From Candidatus Saganbacteria bacterium (GTDB lineage: Bacteria > Margulisbacteria > WOR-1 > O2-12-FULL-45-9): 59,466 nt of DNA. Numbering within the stretch: position 1 is the stretch's first letter; each line of letters opens with the position of its first letter. Under the pieces are notes generated by a model that was given only the letters and a program-made list of their open reading frames with translations, was not told the origin of the DNA and did not search any database. The stretch lies in assembly GCA_016219705.1 (NCBI GenBank), contig JACRKQ010000012.1:1-59466 (forward strand), written 5' to 3'. The position numbers and the translations under genes are program-made. Shown piece by piece: positions 515 through 43,050 of the stretch.

Positions 515-541
515 TTATCGCAGGAAGTGGAGGAAAACTTG
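515..541 (-). promoter_or_regulatory. Sigma28-like promoter motif CAAGTTT-N12-TGCGATAA
   Basis: One of six copies with identical 12-nt spacing; 10 nt upstream of ATG 504. Confidence 0.65.
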
Positions 542-556
542 CATCGATTACTGAAC

Positions 557-916
557 TCACGAACTTAAGAACAGCAACCATTGCCAGAGGGGGACGGTCT
601 TGATCGTTTTGCCTTTTATAACTTCCTGACTTTTTTGGTCGTCGTTTATTATTAATGCTTCGGAAAGATTAAATTTATCCATGGCGAGGAGTAGCGCGCG
701 TATCTCACGATCCCTTGTTTTCTCCTGATTGATATTCCAGCAAACCTGAATAAGCTTGTTCACTGACAATGATTCTTTTAGCAAAAAATCAACCTCCCGA
801 TGGTGGGTGTCTTTCCAGAAGAAAAGCTCCAGGTTGGGATTAAGCGCCATTTGCTGTTTGAGTTTCCAGAAAACAAGGCTTTCCGCGAGATGGCCAAGGT
901 TTTCGCTGACGGCCAT
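557..916 (-). pseudogene. C-terminal DUF4143-type fragment of an AAA_14 ATPase family protein
   Basis: GHLAESLVF, FFWKD..REVDF, LIQVC and VPLWQWLL match the family C-terminus; the P-loop domain is absent. Confidence 0.65.
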
Positions 917-943
917 ATCCGGACTTGTATTGTACTGTATATA

Positions 944-1455
944 TATGAGGTTTATACTGACGAGGGTATTAGTGCCGGTACTACTGACCGCCCTGCCTTG
1001 CAAAAGCTTTTCAAGGATGCCAGGCAGAAAAAGTTCGATTTAGTTATAGTTTATAAAATCGACCGCCTAAGTCGCCGGCTTAAGGACCTAATAGAGATAG
1101 TTGACCAACTGGAAGTAAGCGGAGTAGGGTTTAAGTCCGCGACCGAGCCATTTGATACTACGACTTCGGCTGGTAAGTTAATGTTTCAACAGTTAGGCAG
1201 TTTTGCCGAATTCGAGAGAAATCGTATTGCCGAGAGAGTTTTTCCCGGTATGGTAAAAAGTGTCCAAAGCGGTAACTGGCATGGTTCCAGAAACAGTCCT
1301 ACCGGTTACACTTATAATAAAAAAAAAAGGTTGTTGGAGATTAATGAGCGTGAAGCCAGAATTGTCAGGCTGGTGTATAAGTTGTATTTAGAAGGTAAAA
1401 ACACAGCTCAAATTGCCGAGTATTTAAATGATAGTAAGCGGGAGCCGAGAGCAGG
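944..1455 (+). mobile_element. Truncated large serine recombinase remnant, in frame with miaB
   Basis: YTDEGISAG..DRPAL, VIVYKIDRLSR, FDTTTSAGKLM..FAEFER, P.GY; lacks the catalytic Y.RVS N-terminus and the C-terminal domains. Confidence 0.8.
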
Positions 1456-2509
1456 CCGATATTTTATCAAAACTTACGGTTGCCAAATGAACGTGGCTGA
1501 TTCGGCTAAGCTGGAGGCTGTGCTTGAGCAATCCGATTATACTCAAGCGGAGAATCAAGAATCTGCTGACATCCTCTTAGTCAACACCTGCGTTGTCCGT
1601 CAAAACGCGGAGGATCGTGCTGCCTGGTACGTGACTTCGGCTAAAGGCCTGAAAGAAAAAAATCCTAACTTCAAAATTATCCTTTGCGGCTGTCTGGTTT
1701 CCGAACCCGGCCGCGACGTTAAAAAACAATTTCCTCACGTGGATCTTTTCTTGAAACCGAATGAACCCGGGAAGCTGGCGGAATTCTTAAAACCCCTAAC
1801 CCCTTATTCCCCTTCCCCCTTACCAAGGGGGAAGGGGATAGGGGATGGGGGTGTTACGATTATGACCGGCTGCGACAACTTCTGCTCCTACTGCGTTGTT
1901 CCCTACGTCCGCGGTCGGGAATACAGCCGGCCCCTTGACGAAGTCCTGGCGGAAATCAAAACGTTGGTGGAGCAGGGCGTGACTGATATCACATTGCTGG
2001 GCCAAAACGTAAATTCATATAAATTCGGATTAAGCACATTGTTAAGGGAGATACATTCATTTGACATTTGTCATTTGACATTTGTCATTAGGTTCCTCAC
2101 CTGTCATCCCCGCGATATGTCCGACGAGATCATCGAAGCCGTAGCGGAACTCCCCTACGTCGCCAAAGACTTCATGTTGCCGCTCCAATCTGGTGACGAT
2201 GTGATTTTGCAGAGGATGAATCGCGGCTATAGTCTGGCCCGCTATGTTGATCGGGTCAAAAAAATTCGCAGTTTAATGCCCATGGCTACCATAAGCGCTG
2301 ATATCCTCGTTGGTTTTCCCGGCGAGACGGAGGAACAATTCCAAAATACTTTGCGAGCCATTGAAGAAATCAAGTTCAATGATGTGCACATGTTTGCGTA
2401 TTCGCCCAGGCCAAACACGGCGGCTGCCACTTTACCTGACCAATTGTCTGATGAAATCAAGCAAGAGCGCCTGCAGCGTTTGATAAAAATGGTGCGAAAT
2501 ATGTTATAA
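1456..2509 (+). CDS. miaB: tRNA methylthiotransferase MiaB (radical SAM), no TRAM domain; C-terminal part of ORF 800..2509
   Basis: IKTYGCQMN..DS, NTCVVR, CDNFCSYCVVPYVRGRE, LLGQNVNSY, DILVGFPGETEE. Confidence 0.85.
1792..1852. repeat. GC-rich palindromic element inserted in frame in miaB
   Basis: Perfect 14-bp stem TCCCCTTCCCCCTT-acc-AAGGGGGAAGGGGA (1808-1838), encoding PLTPYSPSPLPRGKGIGDGG. Confidence 0.8.
2058..2092. repeat. Heptamer tandem repeat CATTTG(A/T) inside miaB
   Basis: catttga catttgt catttga catttgt cattagg; last 12 bp identical to 52449-52460. Confidence 0.75.
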
Positions 2510-2522
2510 TCTGCAAAAAGGT

Positions 2523-2636
2523 TAGTGCCCTCATCCGCTGGCGCAAAACACTCCCCCTTCTCCCAGAGGGAGAAGGCGACTCCCTCTCCCTTTGGGAGAG
2601 GGAGGGTAGCTTTAGGGTAAGCGGGTGAGGGTACTA
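2523..2636. repeat. Intergenic nested palindromic element (CCCTC...GAGGG type)
   Basis: Outer arms tagtgccctcatccgct/agcgggtgagggtacta; inner hairpins ccttctccc/gggagaagg and tccctctccc/gggagaggga. Confidence 0.8.
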
Positions 2637-2656
2637 TACAGGAGGAGCTAACAAAA

Positions 2657-3601
2657 ATGGCAAATTCTGAACTCCGCGTTTTCTACGGTACTTCTCATTC
2701 CGAGCTCGGTGAAAAAATTGTTAAACATTTAGGCTTGACCGCGGGCGACATTAAAATCTCCCGTTTTTCCGGCGGCGAGATTTACGCCCGGATCGCGGAA
2801 AACGTCCGGGGACAAAGCTGCGTCATCATCCAGACCTGCACCGATCAGGTTAACGCTGACCTGATGGAATTATTCATTATTATCGACGCCATGAAACGCG
2901 CTTCGGCCAGTTCAATTGCGGCGGTTATACCCCATTTTGGTTATGCCCGCCAGGACAGGAAGGCTGCTTCCCGGGAGCCCATTTCTGCCCGTCTCGTTGC
3001 TAACCTTCTGGAAACTGCGGGCGCCGATCGGGTGGTCGCTATGGATTTGCACTCTGACCAGATACAAGGTTTCTTTAATATTCCCGTCGATACCTTGACG
3101 GCCATACCGATTATCACCAATTATATTAAAAGTAAAAACCTCAAAGATCCGGTTGTTATTGCTCCCGATACCGGCCGGGTTAAAGTGGCTAAGAAATTAG
3201 CGGATCGGATTGGAGCAAAATTGGCGATCCTCCATAAAGTCCGCTCCGGCCATCATCAATCGGAAATTACCCATGTCGTCGGGGAAGTCAAAAATAAAAC
3301 TGTAATTTTGACCGATGATATGATCGATACGGCCGGGACGATTACCAGCGGGATTGACGCCCTGCGCCAAGCGAGCTGTAATTCTGACGTTTATGTGACC
3401 GCCACCCATGGCATTTTCTCCGGGCCGGCGGTGGAGCGGATGACCAAAGCTAATTGCGCTGAAGTCATTGTTACCGATACCTTGCCGATACCAAAAGAAA
3501 AACAATTCCAGGGCTTAAAGATTCTTTCGACAGCGGATCTTTTAGCCCAAGCAATCAGGAGAAATTATGAAAACCAATCCATTACATCACTCTTTGATTA
3601 A
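2657..3601 (+). CDS. prs: Ribose-phosphate pyrophosphokinase
   Basis: FSGGE, PHFGYARQDRK, DLHS.QIQGFF, DDMIDTAGT; GGAGG RBS. Confidence 0.97.
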   Translation: MANSELRVFYGTSHSELGEKIVKHLGLTAGDIKISRFSGGEIYARIAENVRGQSCVIIQTCTDQVNADLMELFIIIDAMKRASASSIAAVIPHFGYARQDRKAASREPISARLVANLLETAGADRVVAMDLHSDQIQGFFNIPVDTLTAIPIITNYIKSKNLKDPVVIAPDTGRVKVAKKLADRIGAKLAILHKVRSGHHQSEITHVVGEVKNKTVILTDDMIDTAGTITSGIDALRQASCNSDVYVTATHGIFSGPAVERMTKANCAEVIVTDTLPIPKEKQFQGLKILSTADLLAQAIRRNYENQSITSLFD

Positions 3602-4832: not shown

Positions 4833-4841
4833 TGGCGATCA

Positions 4842-11948: not shown

Positions 11949-11975
11949 GAAATTTCTGATTTTAATCAAGGATAA
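11949..11975 (+). promoter_or_regulatory. Sigma28-like promoter motif GAAATTT-N12-AAGGATAA
   Basis: 6 nt upstream of ATG 11982; upstream region homologous to 13515-13573. Confidence 0.55.
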
Positions 11976-11981: not shown

Positions 11982-12266
11982 ATGGCAATGCATCGTATTC
12001 CCAGACCTTTATTGAGACCGAGCGCTCATCCTCGCCTTCAGGCGAACTGGGCGATAAAAAATGCGCGCTTGCTAGCCCAAAGAAAAACACAAGCAGAAGA
12101 GAGACGCCAACTTTTAGAAAAGCTGGATGGCTCTAAACTGCACACGCTAGAGGCAGTTGCTGGAGCTGAATCAGCCTTTAATGAACTAAAAGTGAAAAAG
12201 TTGCTGCATTTAGCGGATTTTCAAATGGTTTTAGGTCTATATCAAATCAACGCCAGAAAAGTTTAG
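11982..12266 (+). pseudogene. Internally deleted paralog of the methyltransferase-like family
   Basis: N-terminus MAMHRIPRPLLR..HP resembles ORF 13574; last nine codons LYQINARKV identical to the ORF ending at 15270. Confidence 0.6.
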
Positions 12267-13540: not shown

Positions 13541-13567
13541 GAAATTTCTGATTTTTATCAGTGATAA
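13541..13567 (+). promoter_or_regulatory. Sigma28-like promoter motif GAAATTT-N12-AGTGATAA
   Basis: 6 nt upstream of ATG 13574. Confidence 0.6.
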
Positions 13568-13573: not shown

Positions 13574-14659
13574 ATGGCAATAGGTCGTATCCCAGGACAT
13601 TTGTTAAGACAAATAACACTCTCCCATCCTCATCAACGCGCCGGTTGGGCGGTACCATTAGAAGATCTTTGTCATGCGGGAGAGAGAAGCCGTCACGAAA
13701 AAATTCGGGAACTAGTTTTGCAGGATTGCCCAGAAGAGGCCAGCTTTTGGTCAGATACATATGATAGGAACGACACTTCTTTGGCAGAATATAGTTTACG
13801 AAGGGAACTACACAGGAAAAGAATGGTTATCGCTTTTCAAAAATTATCTTTGAGCAGTCATCTTGATTATCATGATCTTGCTCTACTTTATTATGCCCTG
13901 CAATCTGGCCGGTATTGTTTAGGAACGGGGGGTAATGCCGGAATTATTGTTACCGCACTGCGAGATTTAAAGGTGCGGCGCATTTCTTCTCCAAACATTT
14001 TAGTTTTGGGCTTTTCCTCCGTCTACTCATTAGAAAATCTTGCGGCGCTTCTTAAATTAGTCGGCTTTAAGAATGCCAATATTGTAGCGTTGAATATTGC
14101 TCTTGCTCCTTTGACTATGGCCAAAGAAGAATTTGGCGGGAAAATTTGCGGCTATCCTATAAGTTATGTGAAAGGCGACGCCAGAGAATTGCCCTTTGCC
14201 AACAGCTCCTTTGATTTGGTTGCCACGCATCTGTTTTTAGGACATTTCCCTAATAATGAAAAAAAATGTGTTTTGGAAGAGGCATACCGCGTGCTGCAAA
14301 AAGGCAGAGACTTTGTAGATGCAGAAATAGTTGTTGAGCAATGGTTCGATAAGGCTGAATATATAAAGACTTTTGCAGAGTTAGGAAAAAAATTTAAAGG
14401 AACAAGTAACGAACGAAAACGCGCCGGCGATTACTTAAAAAAATTTGCCTCTTTTTTCCCATTTTATCCCTATACCTTATCCCCTTATTTTAATCCAGGG
14501 TATCCTTATGAGCGATTATTTGATGTTTCGTGGTTTATTCGCATTAAAGTAGACTTAGATAAACAGGGCTTTGTTGCAGATCTTCACGGTTCAAATCCTC
14601 AAGCCTTATACCCTGGCTGCGAAGCCCGCATTTGCCAGATTCGGGCGCGGAAAGAGTGA
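13574..14659 (+). CDS. Class I SAM-dependent methyltransferase-like protein with orphan N-terminal region
   Basis: ILVLG, GDARELPF..SSFDLV, EAYRVL..G. Confidence 0.75.
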   Translation: MAIGRIPGHLLRQITLSHPHQRAGWAVPLEDLCHAGERSRHEKIRELVLQDCPEEASFWSDTYDRNDTSLAEYSLRRELHRKRMVIAFQKLSLSSHLDYHDLALLYYALQSGRYCLGTGGNAGIIVTALRDLKVRRISSPNILVLGFSSVYSLENLAALLKLVGFKNANIVALNIALAPLTMAKEEFGGKICGYPISYVKGDARELPFANSSFDLVATHLFLGHFPNNEKKCVLEEAYRVLQKGRDFVDAEIVVEQWFDKAEYIKTFAELGKKFKGTSNERKRAGDYLKKFASFFPFYPYTLSPYFNPGYPYERLFDVSWFIRIKVDLDKQGFVADLHGSNPQALYPGCEARICQIRARKE

Positions 14660-15270
14660 AAAAGAATGATTACAAATTTACAACCATATATTCCCTGGAA
14701 AATCTGGGGGCGATCCTATCTCTGGTTGGTTTTAAAAACGCCACAATTGTTGCCCTGGATATTTCTGCCTCTCCTCTGGAAAAAGCCAGGGCGCATTTCG
14801 GCCGGACCGTCTTTGGGTTTCCGGTTGAATACGTCCAGGGCGATGCCTTGGCGCTGCCCTTCGACAATGATAGTTTTGACCTCGTAACGACGCATCTTTT
14901 TATGACTCATATCGCGGATCAACGCAAGAATCAAGTACTGGCTGAGGCCGGCCGCGTTTTAAGACGCGACAGGGAGTTTATAGATGAAGAGATTGTTGTT
15001 CCACCCGGAACCGATCTGGACAAATATAAATGGTTTTATGCAACTTTAGCAGATGAATTTCCTGGAACACCAGAGCAGAAAGCTAAGGTCGCGCAATATA
15101 TGGTGGAACTTGGCGCTTATTCTGAATTTTATCCCTATGGAAGCGAGAAATCTCTCGTCGCAAGTATGAATAGTAACGGGTTTGAGGCGCACTTAGGCGG
15201 TCTTCAAGAAAAACGTCTTTATGTGAACGTCTGTGCCTCTCTATATCAAATCAACGCCAGAAAAGTTTAG
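14656..15270 (+). CDS. N-terminally truncated paralog of the preceding methyltransferase-like protein
   Basis: YSLENL..L.LVGFKNA.IVAL, GDALALPF..DSFDLV; lacks motif I; GTG overlaps the upstream TGA. Confidence 0.65.
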   Translation: MKKNDYKFTTIYSLENLGAILSLVGFKNATIVALDISASPLEKARAHFGRTVFGFPVEYVQGDALALPFDNDSFDLVTTHLFMTHIADQRKNQVLAEAGRVLRRDREFIDEEIVVPPGTDLDKYKWFYATLADEFPGTPEQKAKVAQYMVELGAYSEFYPYGSEKSLVASMNSNGFEAHLGGLQEKRLYVNVCASLYQINARKV

Positions 15271-15349: not shown

Positions 15350-15376
15350 GAAATTATTTGTAGAAGGGGTCGAGAA
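15350..15376 (+). promoter_or_regulatory. Sigma28-like promoter motif variant GAAATTA-N12-GTCGAGAA
   Basis: aaatagagtgaaatt (15341-15355) is identical to the reverse complement of 28776-28790. Confidence 0.5.
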
Positions 15377-15409
15377 ATGTTTGAGAGATGTTTGAGAGAT
15401 GTTTGAGAG
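15377..15409 (+). repeat. Tandem repeat (ATGTTTGAGAG)x3
   Basis: Three perfect 11-mers between the motif and ATG 15419. Confidence 0.95.
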
Positions 15410-15418
15410 AAAACAAAT

Positions 15419-17167
15419 ATGAACGTTAAAGTTGAGCGAAGTATTAGCCATTGGTTGGGACGATTTGGGAAATTGGCCTACACAAGTGGTCTTACGCGAG
15501 TCGGAAATGAAATTGCTCAACGTTACGGCCAAACAAGATCAAATACTCAAAATCCATTCAGAATTAGAGTAACAGAATCAGGTCTTCTACTAGATGACGG
15601 GCCGGCTCTAGTTTCCCCTCATAAAATCCTTGCTCGGCGCTTATGGCAGGTTGGAGTCGATTCAATCGTTGTTGATTCAGAAACAAAAGCACCTGATTTT
15701 AAGCATGTTTTTCGGCAACTGCTTTATCGGACACAGCGAGAGCTGGAAAACAGCAAGGTTATTAATTTTTCGTGGATGGATTCGCATAAACAAAAAGAAG
15801 TAGAAAGTGCTATTGCTCGATATCAGAGTGAGATGAGTACTGGCCAAAGTGTCTTTGCAAGACCCTGGGTAACTCCTGATAGATTGGCTTTCCTTGGAGA
15901 TAGCCTCTTTGCGAATACGCGGGCTTTCACCATTTTCCCAGAACAAAAGGATTCATTGGCCGGATTCCTGACCCGTTGCTTGCTTTCAGAGGAGATAAAA
16001 CCTGATTTTCCGAGCTATGGACGTCCTTACCCAATAGATGTTCCTTCGATCATGCGTGATGGCGTTGGATATAACGTCCTGCTCGCTTATTCTAAACCGA
16101 AACCGTCACCAATGCATGTGCCGGAGTCCACTTCCCGCAGCACGGTGTTTGCTGCTCCGGCGGCAACATATAAAGATATTTTCTGTGAGCCTGAAGAAAT
16201 TGAAAAAGATCGAACCACTTCGACCTACGTTCATTACATGCCGGAGAGTCTTGTCACGCAACTGATAAAATGGCTGGCGATGAAAAAAATGGGGCAACAG
16301 AGTGCTGTTTTTATTTGGGTGGTAAATGACTTTATGACTTTGAATGGTCAAGGGTTTGTAGCGGGAAGAACTCCGCTCCAAAGCAAGTTGGAAGATTTTG
16401 TCCAAACACTTCTCCGAGAAATCTACGCTGAAGATTCAACGGCTCGTCCCATATTTTTTCTAATTCCCGATATCCCCACTTTAACATTAAAACCAATCTA
16501 TCAAGAAGGAGATTGGAGCAATTATCAAAAGGGTGAGAAGATGAAGTATTTTCGCGATGGTCGGCCAATTCCCTGGGGAAGCTTTGCGATGCCCTTCATC
16601 CTTGATCTTGTGCGCCAGCAAGGGCAGCACAAGCCTGATGATGTGATCCTACCACAGGAAGTGCTCCGGACATATAGGGCGATTGAAAAATTTAATCTGT
16701 TTCTGCGAAGGCTCACCGAAGCTAATTCACGTGTTTCTGTCATTGATGTGAATGCCTTGCTGAGGGAGGCAGCACGAGGAGAACTTGGTGGAAAATTGTT
16801 CACAGAGGATGGCGTACATCCAACTCCTATTCTCCAGGCCTTAGCAGTTAATGTTATTATAACATCATTAAATGAGCAGTTAGGTTTGCAATATCCAACA
16901 ATAACCCCAGAACGACTTGCTCTCATTCGCAACGATTACTCGAAAGAGGCTCCCCCGTTAAATGAAATTCAGCAAGTCCGCCGTGCTCTTGTGAACAGGC
17001 TAATTGTCTATGCCTGTCGAGCAGGAGGATCCTTTATTCGTCGACTCCCCTGGCAACATACTAAAAAAATATTTCCTGCGGTGATAAGCTTTCTCTGGTG
17101 GACGAGTGTTTCTCGACGATTTCAAGCAATGTCAAAAAAGCTTGAGAATATTTTATTCAAACATTAA
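15419..17167 (+). CDS. SGNH/GDSL hydrolase-like protein with long orphan N-terminus
   Basis: LAFLGDSL (block I), VVNDF (block III-like), FTEDGVHPT (block V). Confidence 0.7.
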   Translation: MNVKVERSISHWLGRFGKLAYTSGLTRVGNEIAQRYGQTRSNTQNPFRIRVTESGLLLDDGPALVSPHKILARRLWQVGVDSIVVDSETKAPDFKHVFRQLLYRTQRELENSKVINFSWMDSHKQKEVESAIARYQSEMSTGQSVFARPWVTPDRLAFLGDSLFANTRAFTIFPEQKDSLAGFLTRCLLSEEIKPDFPSYGRPYPIDVPSIMRDGVGYNVLLAYSKPKPSPMHVPESTSRSTVFAAPAATYKDIFCEPEEIEKDRTTSTYVHYMPESLVTQLIKWLAMKKMGQQSAVFIWVVNDFMTLNGQGFVAGRTPLQSKLEDFVQTLLREIYAEDSTARPIFFLIPDIPTLTLKPIYQEGDWSNYQKGEKMKYFRDGRPIPWGSFAMPFILDLVRQQGQHKPDDVILPQEVLRTYRAIEKFNLFLRRLTEANSRVSVIDVNALLREAARGELGGKLFTEDGVHPTPILQALAVNVIITSLNEQLGLQYPTITPERLALIRNDYSKEAPPLNEIQQVRRALVNRLIVYACRAGGSFIRRLPWQHTKKIFPAVISFLWWTSVSRRFQAMSKKLENILFKH

Positions 17168-17275
17168 AAAATGGAGGCCATAAAAAATGACGGGAATAGT
17201 TAGATTTGGAGAGCTGAACTCGGTGGAGGATACAGCCAAATTATCATTGGACATATTTTTGGAGGTCTCAATACT

Positions 17276-18943
17276 ATGTTAAACAGACCTAGAGCAATAT
17301 CTAATCTGCGAACAAATATTCATCAAACAAGACGCTATGATGTTGCCATAATAGGCGCGGGCGTAGTTGGTTCTGCCGTTGCTGTTTCTTGCGCGCGTAG
17401 AGGCTGGTCTGTCCTCGTATTGGACAAAGGCGATCTGGCGGGAGAAACTTCATCAAACAGCACAGGCCTTCTTCACGGAGGGGCCCGATATGCGGAAAAG
17501 TTAGAATTTGGCATGGTGCTTTCAGCCATCCGTGGGCGCGAATATTTCAAGAAGGCTTTCCCAAATTTAGTTGTTGAAAGGCAATATTTTGTTCCAGCCT
17601 TTCAGGCAGGGAAGCATGGTTATCGAAAAATGCAGATCGGCCGATGGTTGTATGACCTGACTAAACTGTTTGGGTTGAGTTCCTTCCCTAGAGGCAGGAC
17701 GATAAGCGCCGCTGAGTTATCATCGGAAAACATTCCTTGGGCGCAAGATAAGGTCAGGGGCGGATCGTTTTTCTGGGATGGGCAAACTGACGATCATCGC
17801 TTAGCCTTAACGATGTTAATGATTGCGGCTCAACATCAGGCTGATATTATCAGCAGAATGGAATGCAGAGGCTTTGTTCATGATGGAGGCAGGGAAGGCG
17901 GCGTTAGTGGGATTGAGGCAAGAGATCTGCTAAGTGATGAGATATTTAACGTTAAAGCTGATGCGATTGTAAACGCTGCGGGGCCTTGGGCCCAAGATGT
18001 ATATGGATTAAATGATCCGCCAGCCTCCCAATTTCAAACGCTTGATGCAGGGTCTCATCTGATCGTACGCAATTTTTTTGGCCGGCCAATGAACTTTGGC
18101 TTTTTTGCGGAATTCAAAGATGGGCGATTGGTTTTTATCCTGCCGCATGGGCGCAATCTCCTTGTTGGCACGACTTCCGAAGGAAGAAGAGAATCGATCG
18201 ATAATGTACTTCCGGTTTTGCGGCATAACCAATATCTTCTTAACGGAGTGAACAATCTTTTCCCTTTTGCCGCTCTTAAGCCTGCCGATATAATATATGC
18301 GTATTCCGCGCACCGGGCTTTATTTAATGACACCAAGGCAAAGAACTCTGATGCTTTGTCCCGAGAAAATAAAATATTCATCTCCCCTCAAGGATTAATT
18401 ACTATTATCGGCGGGAAAATAACCACTGCGCCTTTGATCGGTGAAAAGGTGGCTAGCTTGGTCGCTAGAGGCAAGAATCTTCCCTTCGATCGCCTTTCAA
18501 CAAAGATGCCTTTTGAATCTTTGGACGAAACAGACAGACTTTTGTTTGTTAATGATAAAGCCCAGATTTTAATGGACAGATATCATATCGATCGAAGGCG
18601 ATGCGAACACCTGTTATTAAAATATGGAATGCGTGCGAGAGCTGTGCTTGATGCGGCGGAAGGTGACGAAAAATTATTACTTCCTTTAGAACCAGGGGGA
18701 ATGGAGGTTGGGGCGCAGGTAGTATATGCTGCCAGAAACGAAATGGCTCTTGGGGTAATCGATGTTCTGTCGCGAAGAATTAGATTGGAAAGAGAAGTTG
18801 GCAATGGCCTTAGCGCTTCATCAGTAGTTTCTCATATCTTGGCTAAAGAACTAGACTGGTCCAAATCGGAAACTGCCGCTCAAGCTGCGGCATATCATGA
18901 AAGGGTTAGGAAAGTGGCACAAGCCGTCGGGCGAGAAGTTTAA
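17276..18943 (+). CDS. glpD: FAD-dependent glycerol-3-phosphate dehydrogenase/oxidase (GlpD/GlpA family)
   Basis: IIGAGVVG, TSSNSTGLLHGGARY, DGQTDD.RL, NAAGPW, GGKITT, DVLSRR. Confidence 0.8.
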   Translation: MLNRPRAISNLRTNIHQTRRYDVAIIGAGVVGSAVAVSCARRGWSVLVLDKGDLAGETSSNSTGLLHGGARYAEKLEFGMVLSAIRGREYFKKAFPNLVVERQYFVPAFQAGKHGYRKMQIGRWLYDLTKLFGLSSFPRGRTISAAELSSENIPWAQDKVRGGSFFWDGQTDDHRLALTMLMIAAQHQADIISRMECRGFVHDGGREGGVSGIEARDLLSDEIFNVKADAIVNAAGPWAQDVYGLNDPPASQFQTLDAGSHLIVRNFFGRPMNFGFFAEFKDGRLVFILPHGRNLLVGTTSEGRRESIDNVLPVLRHNQYLLNGVNNLFPFAALKPADIIYAYSAHRALFNDTKAKNSDALSRENKIFISPQGLITIIGGKITTAPLIGEKVASLVARGKNLPFDRLSTKMPFESLDETDRLLFVNDKAQILMDRYHIDRRRCEHLLLKYGMRARAVLDAAEGDEKLLLPLEPGGMEVGAQVVYAARNEMALGVIDVLSRRIRLEREVGNGLSASSVVSHILAKELDWSKSETAAQAAAYHERVRKVAQAVGREV

Positions 18944-27052: not shown

Positions 27053-27092
27053 CCTGCTTACGCTCGGGTTAATCCTAGTGGGGGGAGGGGTA
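27047..27092 (+). repeat. Direct repeat copy 2
   Basis: tattagcctgcttacgctcgggttaatcct...; contains the stop codons of both flanking genes. Confidence 0.85.
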
Positions 27093-28140
27093 ACTCAAAA
27101 GCGTCAGCGGCGAAATTATCGATTTTCCCAGCTTTGATGATGCCGTCAGCTCCATTCTTTAAAGCTCTTAAGCCATCATGCGAATCTAAATCATGAATTA
27201 ATATAAAACCGCTAAACGATGGTTTTTTGGCAAAACTAAACCCTTGGGCAGGATCTCTTAGTAAATGAACTAAAATGGGCGTGTCCATAGCTGGCATTGA
27301 GCCAGCGATGATCAGGAGATCGACCGGTGGTCTGCTTTCATCAAAAATTCTCTCAAGAACATCTTCCGAATTTGACCTAATCTCTGTCACAATAATTTCT
27401 GGAAGCAGGCTTCTAAGAGTAGAAGCAGTGGCTGGATCAGTTGAAATAACCAATATTTCTCTTATTCTGTCAGGTCTCCCTTCCTTTATAATAGGCACAG
27501 GAAAATTTTCCGATATTGCCAATCCGGGTGCCGTGGAGACCGGGTGGACGGTTGGCGGCGGGGCGACAACTAGCGGAGCGGGGGGAAGGGGTTGGGTAGA
27601 GGTCACAAAATGTCTTTTCAAAAAGTCAGTGGGGTCAGACTTCATCGGATTAGCAAAATCGGCAATTCCAAGGGCAATCATCATCGCATTTACCGCAGAA
27701 GAATTTGCTGCAATATAGCCGCTGTATCCATTATCTCTTAATAATTTTCCTAATTCCAGGCCGCTTATCCCGGGCATATCATTATCCATAAAGATAAGAT
27801 CAATTTTCTGTTCTGCGGCCAGAGCTAAAACTTGATCCTTGATCGGTTGCTGTTGATTTACTGTGACAACCTTTACGCTGTCATCCAACTCACCTTGAAT
27901 AAGCCCTTGATAAAGCTCGAGAATGTTTGGATTATCATCCACAACTAGAATTGTTCTTATAATCTCCGGTCGGCCTGGTTTAGCAGAAGCCGCTTTAATC
28001 CTAAGAGCACCTTGGGGAATATTTAGTTGTTCAAGTTTCGCCTCATCCGCAGAAGTACAAAAGTCTCTTATTCGTGCAGATGGAGTAGCTAGTCCCACTC
28101 GAGTCAGTGTGGTTCGTAGAAAATCTGTTATTCTAGACAT
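27058..28140 (-). CDS. Protein with two receiver-like domains (second degenerate) and orphan N-terminus
   Basis: ILVVDDN, DLIFMDNDMPGISG; second DLLIIAGSMPAMD lacks the phospho-Asp. Confidence 0.75.
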   Translation of the reverse strand: MSRITDFLRTTLTRVGLATPSARIRDFCTSADEAKLEQLNIPQGALRIKAASAKPGRPEIIRTILVVDDNPNILELYQGLIQGELDDSVKVVTVNQQQPIKDQVLALAAEQKIDLIFMDNDMPGISGLELGKLLRDNGYSGYIAANSSAVNAMMIALGIADFANPMKSDPTDFLKRHFVTSTQPLPPAPLVVAPPPTVHPVSTAPGLAISENFPVPIIKEGRPDRIREILVISTDPATASTLRSLLPEIIVTEIRSNSEDVLERIFDESRPPVDLLIIAGSMPAMDTPILVHLLRDPAQGFSFAKKPSFSGFILIHDLDSHDGLRALKNGADGIIKAGKIDNFAADAFELPLPPLGLTRA

Positions 28141-28197
28141 AATAATTTTACCTCCAATTTTTGTCTCGGTTCCTCGCGTTTTTGAAACCGCGAATTT

Positions 28198-28746
28198 TCA
28201 CTTTGTTAAATTAAAAAATTTTCTGACAAAGCGATCAAAGCCAATTTTTCCGCCGCTGTTGTCATCGACCCCAACAAAAGAACCTTCAGTTGTATTAGCG
28301 ATGATCCAGCCATTATATCCATCAGTCCGAAGCTGTCTGGCCAAAACATCGCCATTTACCCCATGACCTTGCATTGCGTAATCCAAAAAAACCATATCGG
28401 GCGCTTCTTCTCTGGACTTGGCAATAAAGTTATCGCTCTGATCAAATGTTTCAATCCGAACTCCTGGTCCCAGAAATCTCTGTAACAATCTCTTAAAAGC
28501 GGAAAGATTAAGAGGATCATCATCAACAATATAAATTAATTTGATAAATTGCGGCCTGTTTTTATTGGAGCCATCTGCAACTTTCGCAGGTGAAGCTGGG
28601 ATGTCCGGCCTCGTAGTCGGGCTGGCATCAAAGGGGAGAGTGGTTGACGGCAGGCCCGTTGGGGTTATCTTGGTCCCTCTTGTGAAGCTTCTGCAGTCAA
28701 ATGGCCCTTTTTTATGTAAAGATGGAGGCAGTCCGATCATTTTCAT
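28198..28746 (-). CDS. Single receiver-domain protein with Pro/Thr-rich N-terminal extension
   Basis: IYIVDDD, PDMVFLDYAM, NG..LA..LR. Confidence 0.75.
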   Translation of the reverse strand: MKMIGLPPSLHKKGPFDCRSFTRGTKITPTGLPSTTLPFDASPTTRPDIPASPAKVADGSNKNRPQFIKLIYIVDDDPLNLSAFKRLLQRFLGPGVRIETFDQSDNFIAKSREEAPDMVFLDYAMQGHGVNGDVLARQLRTDGYNGWIIANTTEGSFVGVDDNSGGKIGFDRFVRKFFNLTK

Positions 28747-28754: not shown

Positions 28755-28781
28755 TTATCGCCGCCTTCCTCTGGAAATTTC
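28755..28781 (-). promoter_or_regulatory. Sigma28-like promoter motif GAAATTT-N12-GGCGATAA
   Basis: 8 nt upstream of ATG 28746. Confidence 0.65.
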
Positions 28782-28837
28782 ACTCTATTTTTGATATAAT
28801 ACCTTTAGTGTCTGTGGTGGGGAGGTTTTGCGAGCCC

Positions 28838-36343: not shown

Positions 36344-36407
36344 AAACTGATCTCTGACCTCTTCCTGGTGTTTTTTAGGAGCAAAAAGTTTATTGGAGGT
36401 GTTAATT

Positions 36408-37021: not shown

Positions 37022-37024
37022 ACA

Positions 37025-38503
<1,479 letters not shown>

Positions 38504-38528
38504 GCAACCTTGATTTTAGGAGGGAAGC

Positions 38529-39074: not shown

Positions 39075-39079
39075 TTGTT

Positions 39080-39133
39080 TTACCGTCTTATAATTTTACC
39101 AGAGGTTAAGTCAATTACTTGGGGACTTTTTTT
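39080..39133 (-). repeat. Diverged duplicate of the tsaC 3' end
   Basis: 48 of 54 bp match 39689-39742; reads KSPQVIDLTSGKIIRR*. Confidence 0.9.
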
Positions 39134-39175
39134 ATGCTACAATTTAAGAAAGATTATTAAAAAAGGTGGTTTTAA

Positions 39176-39418
39176 ATGAACGCAATAGATGTTAAATACG
39201 CGAAGAAAAAATTAGGACAACTTTTGGCAGGAGTGAATGAGTCTCACGAGCCGGTTTATATAGTCGGTAAAAAATCTTCGGCTGTGATGATTAGCGAAGA
39301 AGACTGGAGCGCGATAGAAGAAACCCTCTGTTTATTGTCTATGCCTGGAATGAGACAGTCCATTATTAAAGGATTAAAGACACCTATTGAAAAATGCCTT
39401 AAAAAATTGGATTGGTAA
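39176..39418 (+). CDS. yefM: Phd/YefM antitoxin
   Basis: V.ESHEPV.I.GK...AV.ISEEDW.AI.ETL.LLS.PGM. Confidence 0.9.
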   Translation: MNAIDVKYAKKKLGQLLAGVNESHEPVYIVGKKSSAVMISEEDWSAIEETLCLLSMPGMRQSIIKGLKTPIEKCLKKLDW

Positions 39419-39678
39419 TGTATAAGATTGTTTATACCAAGCAGGCGCAAAAAGACGCCAAAAGGCTTGCTGTTTCCGGATTAAAAGAGAAGACGCAGAA
39501 GCTATTAAAATTATTGGAAGAAAACCCATTTCGCAATCCGCCTGCTTTTGAAAAATTAATGGGGGATTTAAGCGGGGCGTGTTCCCGCAGGATTAATATC
39601 CAGCATAGGCTTGTTTACCAGATTTATGAAAAATTAAAAATTATAAAGATTATTAGAATGTGGTCTCACTACGAATAG
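39418..39678 (+). CDS. yoeB: Txe/YoeB toxin
   Basis: NPP.FEKL.GDL.G..SRRINIQHRLVY, MWSHYE. Confidence 0.93.
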   Translation: MYKIVYTKQAQKDAKRLAVSGLKEKTQKLLKLLEENPFRNPPAFEKLMGDLSGACSRRINIQHRLVYQIYEKLKIIKIIRMWSHYE

Positions 39679-39688
39679 TAATCCCCAC

Positions 39689-40228
39689 TTACCGTCTTAT
39701 AATTTTACCAGTGATTAAGTTAATCACTTGGGAACTTTTCTTTAGTTTAACCCGGCCGCCAAGGACATAATCAACTGCAAGCATTTTAAGTTGCAGGGAA
39801 CTAGAATTTAAAATTGGTGGTTTGCCAGCGATGTTAGCGGAAGTTGCCGCAATCGGGCCGCAAAGTTTGATTAATTGCAAAATAGTTTTATGCGCGGGAA
39901 TTCTAAGCCCGACAGTTTCCAAACCGCCGGTGATTAATTTGGAGACTTTTTGGGTTTTGGGGACAATCAAAGTATAGGGTCCGGGCCACTTTTTTCTGGC
40001 AAAAGCTAAATCTTTATCATTAAAAATGCCCAATTCCTGTGCTTGCTCAATTGTGCCGATTAAAATTTGTAAAGGTTTACTTCTTGGACGTTTTTTTATT
40101 TTAAATATTCGCCTGATAGCTTGAGGCTGGTTCAAGCAAGCGCCGATGCCAAAAACGGTGTCAGTAGGAAAGGCGATAATGCCGCCGTTAAGGATAATTT
40201 TAACCGCCTGTCTGATTTTATTTTTCAT
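39689..40228 (-). CDS. tsaC: Threonylcarbamoyl-AMP synthase (YrdC/Sua5)
   Basis: FPTDTVFGI, K.RP..KPL, WPGPYT, GLRIP, TSAN. Confidence 0.92.
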   Translation of the reverse strand: MKNKIRQAVKIILNGGIIAFPTDTVFGIGACLNQPQAIRRIFKIKKRPRSKPLQILIGTIEQAQELGIFNDKDLAFARKKWPGPYTLIVPKTQKVSKLITGGLETVGLRIPAHKTILQLIKLCGPIAATSANIAGKPPILNSSSLQLKMLAVDYVLGGRVKLKKSSQVINLITGKIIRR

Positions 40229-40303
40229 TGGTGGCAATTATCGGTCAGAAACGGAAAAAAGTCAAATATACTATCAAATCAGAAAAGTTTATATTATAAT
40301 GAA

Positions 40304-41752
40304 ATGGCTATGGTTTTGCGCCTTTTTAACACCTTATCAGGAGAAAAAGAAATCTTTTTCCCGCTTAATCCGCCGCAGGTGAAAATGTATGTCTGCGGCA
40401 TTACCCCTTATGATGCGACCCATCTGGGCCACGGCCGCGCGTATGTCACCTTTGACGTTGTCCGGCGCTATTTGAAGTTTTCTGGTTTTCAGGTCACCTA
40501 TGTCCAAAATTTAACAGACATCGATGACAAAATAATTAAAAAATCAGAAATAAATACTAAATCAGAAAATCAAAATATAAAACAAAAATGCCGGGAAATT
40601 GTGGAAAAATACACAACGGAGTATTTTGAAGTTATGGACCAACTAAATGTTCTGCGAGCTGACCAGTATCCTAAGGCGACTGAAATGATTCCTGACATGA
40701 TTAAGGTAATTCAGAGGTTGATCGAACGCGGTTGTGCCTATGTCGCTGGCAATGACGTCTATTTTTCCGTCGCTTCTTTTGCTGATTACGGAAAATTATC
40801 CAAGCGGAAAAAGAAAGACCTTTTAGCCGGGGCGCGGATGGGGATCAATGAGAGCAAGAAAGATCCGCTCGATTTTGCTCTCTGGAAAGGGGCGAAGCCG
40901 GGAGAACCGAGTTGGTCTGCGCCTTGGGGGGAAGGACGTCCGGGGTGGCACATTGAATGTTCTACCATGTCCAATAAACTGTTGGGGGAGACTTTTGATA
41001 TTCACGGCGGCGGGCGCGATTTAATCTTCCCTCATCATGAAAATGAAATTGCGCAGGCTCAAGCTTATAACGGTAAGCTGTTCGTTAAATACTGGCTGCA
41101 CAATGGTTTTGTCAATATTAACCAGCAGAAGATGTCAAAATCGCTGGGAAACTTTTTCACGCTCAAAGATATTTTTCGAAAATTTGCTCCGCTGGTAGTT
41201 CGTCTCTTTTTACTCCTTACTCATTATCGGAGCCCGATCAATTACAGCGACCAAGAATTGGCCAGCGCCAAGGAAGCGTATAATCGTTTGGTCCGGTTTA
41301 TCGCTGACCTCGATTTCCGGCTGCAAAAAACAAACGACAGCGCGCCGCAGATTGAATTAGTCGGCTTGCAAGACGAATTACTGGAGTTTAAGAATAAATT
41401 TATCACTGCCATGGACGATGATTTCAACACGGCGGGGGCGCTGGCGGAGATTTTTAACTTGGTTCATTACTGCCGCAAAAAAATGGAGGCGGGTGAGATT
41501 GAACGAGAGTGTTTGATAGTCATGAAACAAACAGTTGAACATCTCTGCGGGATTTTAGGGTTGATGATCAAGACGGAAGCTGCTGTTTCCGACAAAATCA
41601 CGCCAGAAGTCGAACGATTAATTGCTGAACGAGAAATAGCCAGAAAAGCCAAAAATTTCCAACAAGCGGATGAGATCAGACAAAAATTAACTCTTATGGG
41701 GGTTATAATCGAGGATACTCCGCAAGGGACAAGGCGGTTAAAAAATGCTTGA
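40304..41752 (+). CDS. cysS: Cysteine-tRNA ligase
   Basis: [33 protein letters not shown]. Confidence 0.97.
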
Positions 41753-43019
41753 TCCAAAATTGCTGCGCAATAATCCCGATGCCGTCAGAGCCGGCTTGAA
41801 AAACCGTAAAGCGGAGGCTTCTCTAGTCGACCGTTTTTTAACCGTCGACGAAAGTTGGCGGGAATTGACGCGGCAGGTTGATGAGCTCAAAGCTTTGCGC
41901 AATAAGGTTTCCGACCAGATTGGCGAGATGAAGAAGGGCAAACAAGATGCCGGCGAGCTGATCGCGCGGATGAAAACGCAGTCGGCGACAATAAAAGACT
42001 TGGAAGCCGCGCAGGCTAAAATTGCCGGCTCGCTTATGGCTGTCCTTTTGGAAATGCCCAATATTCCGCATCATTCAGCGCCTATCGGGGTTGATGCCCG
42101 CGATAACATTGAGGCGCTAACCTGGGGGGAAAAACGGATCTTTGATTTTAAGCCTTTGGCGCATGATGAAATTGGCTGCAAGCTGGGGATATTAGACTTT
42201 GAACAGGCCGCAAAAATTTCGGGGTCGCGCTTTGTCGTCTATCGCGGAGCGGGGGCGGCTCTGGAGCGGGCGCTCATCAATTTCATGCTCGATACCCATG
42301 TCAAGGAGCACAGTTCAACGGAAATTTTTGCTCCGGTCCTGGTTAAGCCCCAAAGCCTGATAGGCACAGGTCAATTGCCTAAATTTGAAGAAGAGTTATT
42401 TAAATTGCGCGACGATGATTTATATCTGATCCCCACGGCCGAAGTTTCTGTGACCAATCTCCACCGTGAAGAAATCTTATCAGTCGATTGTCTGCCGCTC
42501 AAATATTGCTGTTATTCGCCCTGTTTCCGTCGGGAGGCGGGCTCTTATGGCAAGGATACTAAAGGGATTATTCGCCAGCACCAATTTAATAAAGTTGAGC
42601 TGGTGCGATTTGTGGAGCCGGAGAAGTCGTACGAGGAATTGGAAAGGCTAACAGCCGACGCGGCCGCGATTTTAGAAAAATTAAATCTGCCGTATCGTGT
42701 TGTCCAGCTCTCTACCGGCGACCTGGGCTTTTCCGCGGCCAAAACTTATGACATTGAAGTCTGGTTCCCGTCGGAAAAACAATACCGTGAGATTTCCTCC
42801 TGTTCCAACTTCGAATCTTTCCAAGCCAGGCGCGCCGCAATCCGTTATCGCAAAGACCGGGAGGCAAAGCCGGAATTTGTCCACACCTTAAACGGTTCCG
42901 GTCTGGCTGTCGGCCGCTGTCTGGCGGCAATTTTAGAAAATTACCAGCAGGCTGACGGCAGTGTTCAAATACCGGAAATCTTGTGGCCATATTTGCATTG
43001 TAAGATTATAAAAGTTTAA
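41745..43019 (+). CDS. serS: Serine-tRNA ligase
   Basis: TGQLPKF, LIPTAEV, FRREAG, HQFNKVE, EISSCSN, HTLNGSG. Confidence 0.97.
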
Positions 43020-43023
43020 TCTG

Positions 43024-43050
43024 CAAGTTTTCTCCTCTTTATCCCGATAA
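43024..43050 (+). promoter_or_regulatory. Sigma28-like promoter motif CAAGTTT-N12-CCCGATAA
   Basis: 10 nt upstream of ATG 43061; best match to the FliA consensus. Confidence 0.7.

Follow-up and report, generated by a model that had tools for sequence, protein, structure and literature searches.

Six short sites of the same build are scattered over a 59,466-nucleotide stretch of the genome of Candidatus Saganbacteria, an uncultured groundwater bacterium (the window, meaning the whole stretch of DNA that was analyzed), and the question is what reads them. The initial annotation ascribed them to a sigma28/WhiG-type factor driving a lineage-specific program of non-flagellar orphan genes. All six copies were recovered by pattern search (Table 1). 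The pattern SAARTTW-N15-GAKAA matched six times in the window compared with 0.43 matches expected, and 0 of 100 shuffles reached six; this shuffle test is circular, because the pattern was derived from the same six sites. Paralogy of the 11949 and 13541 sites, as had been proposed, was borne out: their promoter DNA is similar, and the ORFs behind them share 38% identity over the first 48 residues (E = 5e-5).

The ORFs downstream had been described as orphan or atypical. Four of them gave no Pfam family, and the methyltransferase, GlpD-like, and receiver pairs were recovered, but the SGNH label of 15419–17167 had to be dropped, since this ORF has no Pfam match at E ≤ 1e-3. The start codon lies 6, 6, 8, 10, and 10 nt past GATAA at five sites, consistent with the range of 6–10 nt given before, and 42 nt past it at the 15350 site, where the leader contains ATGTTTGAGAG in three tandem copies of 11 nt each. 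Next to the receiver pair, TGATATAAT is found at 28792 on the plus strand, back to back with the 28755–28781(−) site. Of the 30 relatives in the order, 7 have weak homologues of the 81-aa ORF (36–48% identity). The ETF operon behind it has its own promoter and therefore need not be served by the 43024 site.

Table 1. Promoter-like sites and associated genes in the window. Scores in bits are PWM scores; Pfam threshold, E ≤ 1e-3.
Feature	Position	Strand	Details
Promoter-like site, subtype B	515..541	-	tGCAAGTTTT-N11-TGCGATAA; 20.4 bits; ATG 10 nt downstream
ORF of at least 168 aa, extends past window edge	1..504	-	no Pfam family
Promoter-like site, subtype A	11949..11975	+	GAAATTTC-N11-AAGGATAA; 21.7 bits; ATG 6 nt downstream; paralogue of 13541 site
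94-aa ORF	11982..12266	+	no Pfam family; N-terminus 38% identical to that of 13574-14659
Promoter-like site, subtype A	13541..13567	+	GAAATTTC-N11-AGTGATAA; 20.1 bits; ATG 6 nt downstream
Methyltransferase-domain gene pair, overlapping	13574..15270 (13574-14659, 14632-15270)	+	Pfam
Promoter-like site, subtype A	15350..15376	+	aaaatagagtGAAATTAT-N11-GTCGAGAA; 30.4 bits; 42-nt leader
582-aa ORF (15419-17167, no Pfam family), then GlpD-like FAD oxidoreductase (17276-18943)	15419..18943	+	
Promoter-like site, subtype A	28755..28781	-	aaaatagagtGAAATTTC-N11-GGCGATAA; 30.2 bits; ATG 8 nt downstream
Response-regulator receiver-domain gene pair	27058..28746 (28198-28746, 27058-28140)	-	Pfam
Promoter-like site, subtype B	43024..43050	+	tGCAAGTTTT-N11-CCCGATAA; 20.5 bits; ATG 10 nt downstream
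81-aa ORF	43061..43306	+	no Pfam family
Sigma-70-type extended -10, TGTTATAAT	43321..43329	+	6 nt 5' of ETF gene at 43336

Across the genome, the motif matched 48 times at its own spacing (42 times outside the window), compared with 7–16 matches at each of 11 other spacings. A whole-genome PWM scan, with the matrix refined on the same genome as scanned and genes called by a simple ORF caller, returned 97 sites of at least 20 bits, whereas a Markov-3 random genome gave 2; with the threshold raised to 24 bits, the numbers were 54 and 0. Noncoding DNA makes up 10.5% of the genome, and 48 of these 54 sites were intergenic. Among 96 sites scoring at least 20 bits, 52 had the 5′ end of a gene within 300 nt ahead, and 6 had a convergent 3′ end. 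The regulon size is about 70–125 sites, with the genome 87% complete. It might be suspected that the matches arose by chance or belong to a dispersed repeat without promoter function, given that the six sites themselves supplied the pattern and that two of these are paralogous. This explanation is contradicted by the genome-wide spacing specificity, the variable spacers between conserved blocks, the orientation (52 versus 6), and the conservation in 65 genomes described below, and we regard it as hardly conceivable.

The motif consists of a −35 block, (G/C)(A/C)A(A/G)TTT, and a −10 block, CGATA(A/T), joined by a spacer of fixed length and variable sequence. CGATA(A/T) is the best-conserved block, with the highest −10 information content of the PWM at the CG at −13/−12, and the GC preceding it is not conserved. 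Three −35 variants gave 32, 17, and 8 matches at the motif spacing and 0–3 at others. Two −35 subtypes predominate, A (GAAATTT) and B (CAAGTTT), which share the spacing and the −10 and differ in their flanks. The 8+11+8 geometry is that of the sigma-28 consensus TAAAGTTT-n11-GCCGATAA, which has 11 nt between the octamers (PMC2859248). The FliA class III promoters of Escherichia coli, Salmonella, and Pseudomonas aeruginosa have this geometry and the CGATAA core −10 in common with the present sites, whereas the −35 here is GAAATTT or CAAGTTT instead of TAAAG, and a conserved GC extended −10 is missing. Canonical TAAAGT occurred once at the motif spacing; GAAATTT and CAAGTTT share AA.TTT with the consensus. 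The in silico results support a second promoter class with sigma-28 geometry, and the six sites are probably members of a genome-wide class of sigma-28 (FliA/WhiG)-type alternative-sigma promoters.

The most over-represented upstream words were TATAAT, TTGACA, and TGnTATAAT. TGnTATAAT sites had been noted before several housekeeping genes, and in the window TGnTA(T/A)AAT indeed precedes the genes for PRPP synthetase, an SLH protein, PurH, ETF, and FemAB. Within 250 nt of the tRNA genes, the sigma-28-like motif was not found (0/44), and TTGACA/TGnTATAAT-like sites were present there instead. In silico, the use of a canonical sigma-70-type promoter (TTGACA/TGnTATAAT) by tRNA and core genes is supported. 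Sigma-70 promoters have the form TTGACA-N17-TATAAT and carry a T at −12. If the motif were an activator-dependent promoter of the primary sigma, GAAATTTC would bind a transcription factor and GATAAT would act as a weak −10; in line with this, GAAATTTC is a perfect 8-bp palindrome, and GATAAT matches TATAAT at 5/6 positions. However, the CAAGTTTT and GCAATTT variants are not palindromic, yet their enrichment is equally spacing-specific, the motif has its conserved CG at −13/−12 in contrast to the sigma-70 T at −12, and a distinct and abundant TTGACA/TGnTATAAT class exists in the same genome. We consider this reading very improbable.

Short leaders had been taken as a mark of the regulon, which did not hold genome-wide. 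The start codon lay 4–10 nt past the −10 in 16 of 63 intergenic motif sites versus 43 of 140 TGnTATAAT promoters; short leaders are a property of the genome and not of the regulon. Start codon distances from GATAA peaked at 6 nt, and most motif sites had a leader of 15–150 nt with a Shine-Dalgarno sequence. At sigma-28-dependent promoters, transcription begins about 7–8 nt past the −10. RNA polymerase with a FliA-family sigma would be expected to start transcription approximately 7 nt past GATAA, for which the 6-nt peak of start codons is the one indirect hint, and an ATG at this predicted start would yield a leaderless mRNA, as is the case at many of the organism's sigma-70-type promoters.

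The enrichment of orphan genes behind the motif was supported in silico: 19 of the 40 top target genes had no Pfam family, whereas among 20 random controls this held for 2 (p = 0.0043). Flagellar genes were absent from the 40. Other targets included Ser/Thr kinases, receiver proteins or response regulators, tiny ORFs, a few enzymes, and the primary sigma gene, showing that the regulon is non-flagellar and rich in family-less genes, as had been supposed, but not made up of orphans only. The motif was absent before the flagellar cluster, flhA, and both FliA-like sigma genes described below, which counts against a sigma-28 reading.

Conservation was analyzed among the relatives. GAAATTT-N14-CGATAW gave 5–90 matches per genome in 31/31 genomes of the order (the window's own genome, with 23 matches, and 30 relatives), and the reversed control gave 0–1. 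The exact pattern was present in 65/65 genomes of the class with 3–160 matches (reversed control, 0–2), and a phylum-wide scan beyond the class showed a weaker motif signal. Per-genome counts across the class were 3–160 for subtype A and 2–22 for subtype B. At the primary sigma gene, GAAATTTC, a variable spacer, and CGATAA were found in every one of the 30 orthologous loci compared (one from this genome and 29 from relatives), and at the 81-aa ORF, CAAGTTTT, a spacer, and CGATA were found in 8/8 (own genome and 7 relatives). The −35 subtype is fixed per gene across relatives, with GAAATTTC in 30/30 and CAAGT(T/A)TT in 8/8. A lineage-wide program, covering the class Saganbacteria/WOR-1 of Margulisiibacteriota, is supported in silico.

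A FliA/WhiG-family sigma gene, as implied by the initial annotation, is present in the genome. Its product, on contig C44, has TIGR02479 FliA_WhiG as its best family at 142.9 bits, which is below the NCBIfam cut-off of 189.6 bits, and chains of WhiG and FliA make up its top six PDB matches. The C44 sigma is a three-domain protein of 238 aa, and its gene lies between flgI and flgB in the flagellar basal-body cluster, similar to the FliA systems of E. coli, Salmonella, and P. aeruginosa, in which the sigma is encoded among flagellar genes. Residues Y76, R80, R82, D87, and R104, which read the −10 in P. aeruginosa sigma-28 (PMC12784957), are kept in the C44 alignment. Tyr stands opposite the Arg that recognizes the GC extended −10, which fits the unconserved positions 5′ of CGATAA. 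The residues that read the −35 differ between the C44 sigma and P. aeruginosa FliA, with S224 opposite P and Q228 opposite R in the alignment. Orthologues were found in 58/65 class genomes. None was found in G142 (95% complete, 92 exact matches); this genome lacks FlgI and FliF but has FlhA, which points to, but does not prove, an assembly gap.

A second FliA-like sigma, of approximately 200 aa and without region 3, is encoded on contig C45. The motif may be read by this short sigma, or the C44 and C45 sigmas may split the GAAATTT and CAAGTTT subtypes between them. In region 4 the C45 sigma resembles FliA, and its best PDB matches are FliA region 4; region 2 can be aligned with the corresponding part of the C44 sigma, with Y, R, K, and D conserved at −10-reading positions. 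The C45 sigma was found in 64/65 class genomes. A split would agree with subtypes that are fixed per gene, have distinct flanks, and vary differently in number between genomes. On the other side, C45 homologues are present in 136 of 146 phylum genomes, some of which have 0 exact A-type matches (for example, G076–G078 and G052), the C45 gene is preceded by a sigma-70-type promoter, and neither FliA-like sigma is linked to a particular −35 subtype. This possibility is, in our judgment, doubtful.

ECF promoters can have the form TGAAAC-N16-CGTA, which TGAAAT-N16-CGATA resembles, and an ECF-like sigma of 159–176 aa is encoded in each of five near-complete relatives. However, in 4/5 of them the ECF gene is preceded by another motif, GGAAC(T/C)(T/A)TT followed by (T/G)TGT(C/A)(T/C/A)AA, which is the usual self-regulated arrangement, and the best PWM score upstream of the five genes was at most 2.3 bits. 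An ECF gene of the relatives' type was not found in this genome, which is weak evidence because the assembly is 87% complete; the sole ECF-like ORF adjoins a serine recombinase on a 3.8-kb contig. Reading of the motif by an ECF sigma of the class is thus extremely improbable.

Sigma-28 classically drives late flagellar genes (flagellin, motor, chemotaxis) and is checked by FlgM. The genome had no match to flagellin (PF00669) or FlgM (PF04316), so the classical sigma-28 targets and anti-sigma are missing, which also counts against a sigma-28 reading; flagellin was detected in 1/65 class genomes, as a weak match. Nearly all of the basal body is still encoded (rod, L and P rings, MS ring, FliH/I/J, and FlhA). 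In flagellated members of the phylum, flagellin genes have TAAAG..-N11-ACCGATAA-like sites. The class keeps basal-body and export genes without flagellin, and a sigma-28-type regulon would therefore be non-flagellar. Of the original proposal, the motif class, the sigma genes, and the non-flagellar targets stand. The sequences directly show the motif with its spacing, position, orientation, and conservation, and the kinds of gene that follow it; from these we infer promoter function, the transcription start, and the identity of the reading sigma, for which there are two FliA-like candidates.

The system differs from FliA class III regulons in that a search here recovered neither flagellin nor FlgM nor any other class III target, and in that approximately 100 sites lie mostly before family-less genes, with the primary sigma gene targeted. 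In Bdellovibrio bacteriovorus, FliA is a global attack-phase regulator, with TTAAG-N16-CCGATA in 92/140 mapped attack-phase promoters (PMC3627812). Both systems place a sigma-28-type promoter at many non-flagellar or uncharacterized genes, including small RNAs or ORFs and regulators, and both form a second global program beside the housekeeping one. Bdellovibrio is flagellated, has flagellar genes in its regulon, and had its promoters mapped by 5′-end sequencing, whereas the Saganbacteria lineage lacks flagellin, its promoters are predicted in silico, and its −35 blocks and FliA-like sigmas each come in two forms. Chlamydial sigma-28 is a FliA-type sigma in a non-flagellated host with few flagellar export genes and a small non-flagellar regulon. 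Here, too, a FliA-type sigma is retained without a flagellum and would serve non-flagellar genes, but the basal-body set is nearly whole and the sites are about two orders of magnitude more numerous. WhiG is a FliA-family sigma with a non-flagellar developmental program and few direct targets, held by RsiG with c-di-GMP. A non-flagellar program would be common to WhiG and the present system, and Streptomyces WhiG (PDB 6pfv and 6pfj) is the closest solved relative of the C44 sigma by sequence (87 bits).

In the parts of the literature that our search covered, we found no publication that deals with the promoters of Margulisiibacteriota or Saganbacteria or with their sigma regulons. The findings raise the question of the role of a basal body without a filament. 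One speculative and rather unlikely reading is that this filament-less class kept the basal body and turned the flagellar sigma system into a global program, with two FliA paralogues, two −35 subtypes, and one CGATAA −10 serving 10–20% of transcription units, including the housekeeping sigma gene; the export apparatus might then be a checkpoint for sigma release, for example by secreting an unrecognized anti-sigma. The sigma-28-type program would in itself be the second independent case, after Bdellovibrio, of FliA as a global regulator, and what would be new is a lineage without flagellin and a primary sigma gene under an alternative promoter. The motif provides a regulon map for an uncultured sister lineage of Cyanobacteria, with approximately 100 sites per 1.5-Mb genome in 65 genomes, and would place many functionally uncharacterized genes in a single co-regulated program.

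The sigma-28-like, two-block pattern SAARTTW-N15-GAKAA occurred exactly six times in the window, as the initial annotation had claimed. This compares with 0.43 matches expected, and none of 100 shuffles reached six, in a test that is circular because the pattern was derived from the six sites themselves. In the assembly searched (1.47 Mb in 94 contigs, 87% complete, with the window as contig C68), 48 matches were found at the same spacing (6 in the window and 42 elsewhere), versus 7–16 at each of 11 other spacings. The longer consensus of the 48 sequences comprised an A-rich stretch, (a/c)(g/c)T, GAAATTT(T/C), 11 variable bases, and nnCGATA(A/T), with tat frequently following. The genome scan proposed in the initial annotation was performed with a position weight matrix (PWM) of 47 columns and returned 97 sites scoring 20 bits or more, compared with 2 in a Markov-3 random genome; the corresponding counts were 54 versus 0 at 24 bits or more and 203 versus 34 at 16 bits or more. 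Because the matrix was refined over four iterations on this same genome and drifted looser, weight was put on the high-score classes and the exact-pattern counts. Chance matches and a dispersed repeat were considered as the source of the sites and rejected.

The positions of the sites were promoter-like. Genes were called with a home-made dicodon ORF caller, which gave 1456 genes with uncertain start codons in the window's own genome (G000). In this genome, 10.5% of which is non-coding, 48 of the 54 motif sites of at least 24 bits and 24 of the 42 sites of 20–24 bits were intergenic, as were all six window sites (PWM 20.1–30.4 bits). Among 96 sites of at least 20 bits, 52 were directed at a gene's 5′ end no more than 300 nt away and 24 lay inside genes; the remainder ran towards the 3′ end of a convergently oriented gene (6), had no gene within 300 nt (9), or faced a contig end (5). 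Upstream of the primary sigma gene, all 30 orthologous loci (G000 and 29 relatives) carried GAAATTTC, an unconserved 11-nt spacer, and nnCGATAA, followed by a Shine-Dalgarno sequence and an ATG after 17–51 nt. Likewise, the 81-aa ORF was preceded by tGCAAGTTTT, a spacer, and CGATA(A/G/T), with the ATG 5–11 nt downstream, at all eight loci found (G000 and weak homologues in 7 of 30 relatives). The exact A-type pattern, with GAAATTT at −35, was present in all 65 genomes of the Saganbacteria/WOR-1 class of Margulisiibacteriota at 3–160 copies per genome, versus 0–2 for the reversed control, and genomes of other classes of the phylum had 0–52.

Ranking of k-mers by strand asymmetry was dropped: it returned the Shine-Dalgarno sequence and a repeat and missed the motif, because GAAATTTC is a palindrome, and ranking of words against Markov expectation was substituted. 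The most strongly over-represented words in 545 upstream regions were TATAAT (179 versus 97 expected), TTGACA (71 versus 36), TGTTATAAT, and TGCTATAAT. The tRNA genes were preceded by TTGACA/TGnTA(T/A)AAT-like sites, often 5–20 nt before the tRNA, and none of 44 had the motif within 250 nt. TGnTATAAT had been assigned to several housekeeping genes from the outset, and the TGnTA(T/A)AAT sites in the window indeed precede PRPP synthetase, an SLH protein, PurH, ETF, and FemAB. Because a separate TGTTATAAT lies 6 nt before the ETF gene, the 43024 site is best taken as the predicted promoter of the small ORF alone. A housekeeping promoter was considered as the identity of the motif sites and rejected; the motif marks a predicted second promoter class, distinct from the housekeeping one.

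Compared with the sigma-28 consensus TAAAGTTT-n11-GCCGATAA, as given in one published account (PMC2859248), GAAATTTC-N11-nnCGATAA has the same 8+11+8 layout. The −10 core CGATA(A/T) is identical, but the GC preceding the core is unconserved in the motif; the −35 has AA.TTT in common with the consensus but G or C as its first base. At motif spacing, the −35 variants GAAATT, CAAGTT, GCAATT, and TAAAGT occurred 32, 17, 8, and 1 times, and the first three were each enriched at this spacing only (0–3 at other spacings). Two subtypes shared the spacing and the −10. Subtype A (38 exact sites) read aaaAtaaagT-GAAATTT, with an upstream A-tract and an A-rich spacer, and subtype B (19 exact sites) read tG-CAAGTTTt, with a pyrimidine-rich spacer, taCGATAaTAta.gTG, and usually an NTG ~5 nt after GATAA. 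The subtype was constant per orthologous gene across relatives (primary sigma gene and 81-aa ORF loci), and in the class the B-type counts per genome were fairly steady (2–22), with 3–160 for the A-type. Two regulons, each of two FliA-like sigma factors reading one subtype, would explain both the constancy and the counts. For the promoter family as a whole, the nearest precedent among the sources retrieved is Bdellovibrio, with its global FliA regulon (PMC3627812). Some flagellin genes of flagellated phylum members (e.g. on the DNA stretches L094, L089, and L097) had TAAAG..-N11-ACCGATAA-like sites, indicating that sigma-28-type promoters with classical targets exist in the phylum. In four flagellated relatives (G089, G090, G092, and G096; stretches L095, L096, L098, and L092), a conserved GGTCCGC(A/C/T)TGTCGGGG word lay upstream of the flagellin genes of their families, with no clear sigma-28-type site.

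Short leaders had been proposed as a property of these genes. The ATG does lie 6–10 nt after GATAA at five of the six window sites, but this is not specific to the regulon: an in-frame start 4–10 nt downstream was found at 16 of 63 intergenic motif sites (at least 17 bits, gene within 200 nt) versus 43 of 140 intergenic TGnTA(T/A)AAT sites, counted from the −10. Start-codon distances at the motif peaked at 6 nt, with a gap at 11–14 nt and longer leaders at other sites; the TGnTA(T/A)AAT peak was 16 sites at 6 nt. Since short leaders were commoner at TGnTA(T/A)AAT sites, genes with no leader or hardly any seem to be characteristic of the organism rather than of the regulon. In Pseudomonas aeruginosa, the final A of GCCGATAA is reported at −8 (PMC12784957), so that a start codon 6–7 nt downstream would fall on the first bases of the transcript.

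To characterize the targets, the 46 top intergenic sites elsewhere in the genome (20 bits or more, with a gene no further than 200 nt away) were taken in score order, and for 40 of them the first gene downstream was scanned against Pfam (E ≤ 1e-5). No family was assigned to 19 of the 40, including proteins of 2164, 1420, 845, 631, and 567 aa. Among 20 randomly drawn control genes (upstream gap of at least 40 nt, no motif), 2 had no family and the others were largely core genes (ThrRS, GroES, S8, L9, DnaX, NrdD, and Pta). This difference (Fisher's exact p = 0.0043) upholds the suggested association of the motif with orphan genes. The 21 targets with a family comprised three Ser/Thr kinases, a receiver protein, an SNF2 helicase, a HEPN protein, and the primary sigma factor; two methyltransferase-domain proteins, an aromatic amino-acid lyase, GH16, a class IV aminotransferase, FBPase, and cytochrome c; and Nramp, a DUF58/transglutaminase protein, a PEP-utilising enzyme, an NTPase, an FGE-sulfatase-like protein, a Com-type zinc ribbon, and a DUF3467 protein. 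No flagellar gene was found among the 40. The tiny ORFs 3′ of four of the strongest sites were ~17 and ~31 aa long, and all had a Shine-Dalgarno sequence; the C12 and C40 copies had the promoter-like site and leader in common, and no Rfam family matched at these sites. An Rfam search of 20 stretches downstream of strong sites without a long ORF detected only tmRNA, one tRNA, and opposite-strand 5S/23S rRNA, and no known same-strand RNA family downstream of the remaining strong sites; the window itself had no family at the gathering score. Separately, ACTATTCGTCAGGGCTGAAGTG, TGCGAAGAATTTG, and CTTCGGTGTCAAATAC recurred 11–19 times each in upstream regions on many contigs, and this word family looks like a dispersed repeat.

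Features of the window (plain coordinates) and of other contigs of the same genome (C numbers)
Feature	Location	Observation
Motif site	515-541(-)	Subtype B
Motif site	11949	Subtype A
Motif site	13541	Subtype A
Motif site	15350	Subtype A
Motif site	28755-28781(-)	Subtype A
Motif site	43024	Subtype B
81-aa ORF	43061	
ETF gene	43336	
Leaderless or near-leaderless starts at TGnTA(T/A)AAT sites (examples)	43321-43338, 51261-51285	
Back-to-back sites	28755-28800	Minus-strand motif site and plus-strand TGATATAAT at 28792, just past its −35 end
Tandem repeat	15377-15418	Three 11-nt copies of ATGTTTGAGAG, each with ATG at its beginning, between the 15350 site and the ATG at 15419
Longest ORF	800-2509	Resolvase N-terminal domain joined to MiaB-like UPF0004 and radical-SAM protein; likely a pair of genes, or a start codon placed too far upstream
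Second strong motif site	C3:8036	29.5 bits; directly 3′ of the primary sigma gene, before a 63-aa ORF without Pfam family
Strongest sites with only tiny ORFs downstream	C30:9168, C90:55720, C12:14359, C40:25025(-)	28.6–35.7 bits
Stretch with CAAATTTA...CGGGGTAG	C18:30, C59:30, C42:7065(-), C91:4700(-)	Four identical copies, all near contig ends; likely a dispersed repeat or mobile element at which the assembly is interrupted
GTTATAA/GTTATTG/GTTATAG runs	C19:7150-7640, C21:1-250, C59:1780-1835, C69:800-850	E.g. ttataagttattggttataagtta; flank several tRNA genes
Flagellar basal-body and export genes	C44:27600-47566 (L083), C94:8245-10209	Nearly whole set
Short second FliA-like sigma	C45:4645-5490 (L003:883-1731)	Fused in frame to a conserved upstream ~70-aa ORF

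Four sigma-like genes were found in the assembly: a 354-aa primary-type factor (C3), two FliA-like proteins (C44 and the divergent C45), and a weak ECF-like ORF (C9), which adjoins a serine recombinase on a 3.8-kb contig. The C44 protein supplies the FliA/WhiG-family factor that had been postulated; it has 238 aa, its best family is FliA_WhiG (142.9 bits, below the 189.6 cut-off), and its six best solved relatives are WhiG and FliA. Its gene lies in a minus-strand cluster in the order flhB C-terminal piece, fliK-like, flgF, flgG, flgA, flgH, flgI, a 113-aa ORF, sigma, flgB, flgC, fliE, fliF, short fliG, fliH, fliI, and fliJ, with flhA located elsewhere. The FliG protein, at only 158 aa, matched the N and M domains but not the C domain. 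In one pairwise alignment to P. aeruginosa FliA, C44 keeps the equivalents of Y76, R80, R82, D87, and R104, R80 being reported to read G-12 (PMC12784957). Among other residues to which that paper gives a role, R97 (the Arg reading the GC extended −10) aligns with Tyr, and S224 and Q228 (reading the −35) are matched by Pro and Arg. These residues would agree with the conserved CGATAA, unconserved extended −10, and altered −35, as a consistency check only.

The C45 sigma, ~200 aa in most relatives, matches FliA in region 4; in region 2 it can be aligned with C44 and retains the Y, R, K, and D positions, making it a second candidate reader of the motif. The ~70-aa ORF upstream is separate in most relatives, with a stop codon between, and in the relative G003 the pair lies directly 3′ of flhA. 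The C45 gene itself has a sigma-70-type extended −10 upstream, and the motif was not found at 17 bits or more within the flagellar cluster, nor upstream of flhA or of the two FliA-like sigma genes.

An ECF promoter was weighed as the identity of the motif. Each of five near-complete relatives has four sigma factors (primary, C44-like, C45-like, and an ECF of 159–176 aa); an ECF gene of this type was not found in the G000 assembly, which is 87% complete. In four of the five (G016, G022, G017, and G116; L159–L162), the ECF gene is preceded by GGAAC(T/C)(T/A)TT then (T/G)TGT(C/A)(T/C/A)AA, a predicted third promoter type in the lineage, and the motif PWM scored at most 2.3 bits upstream of the ECF genes of all five. 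The distinct site and these low scores argue against the ECF sigma as reader, and this identity was rejected.

Between the two FliA-like sigmas, presence or absence across 146 phylum genomes did not discriminate, because both are nearly universal: 58 of the 65 class genomes have a C44 orthologue (57–79% identity; best matches outside the class, 29–39%), and C45 homologues were detected in 64 of these 65 and in 136 of the 146 phylum genomes. Three relatives (G142, G003, and G027), at first sight counter-examples, had the motif and no C44 orthologue was found in them. As G142 and G003 also lack FlgI and FliF, encoded in the same cluster, but keep FlhA, the absence there reads as a missing contig. 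In G027, FlgI, the only such protein looked for, was missing as well; in G121 and G118, FlgI was present and a C44 orthologue was not found.

Close homologues of the C44 sigma were found in public MAGs of Candidatus Margulisiibacteriota, Candidatus Saganbacteria, and candidate division WOR-1. Neither flagellin (PF00669) nor FlgM was found in G000; flagellin was detected in 15 of 146 phylum genomes, one of them in the class (1 of 65, a 59-bit match). The sequencing runs listed for this DNA are four, all of DNA and from one groundwater study, and no paper on promoters of this phylum was found among those returned by the literature search. Judged from sequence, the motif is a class-wide, non-flagellar candidate promoter family of the sigma-28 type, mostly at uncharacterised genes, and the finding is real and larger than first noted. 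Three features are new: the finding comes from an uncultured lineage that is sister to Cyanobacteria; flagellin is absent while the basal body is retained; and the −35 is altered and has two subtypes, together with two FliA-like sigmas and conserved targeting of the housekeeping sigma gene.
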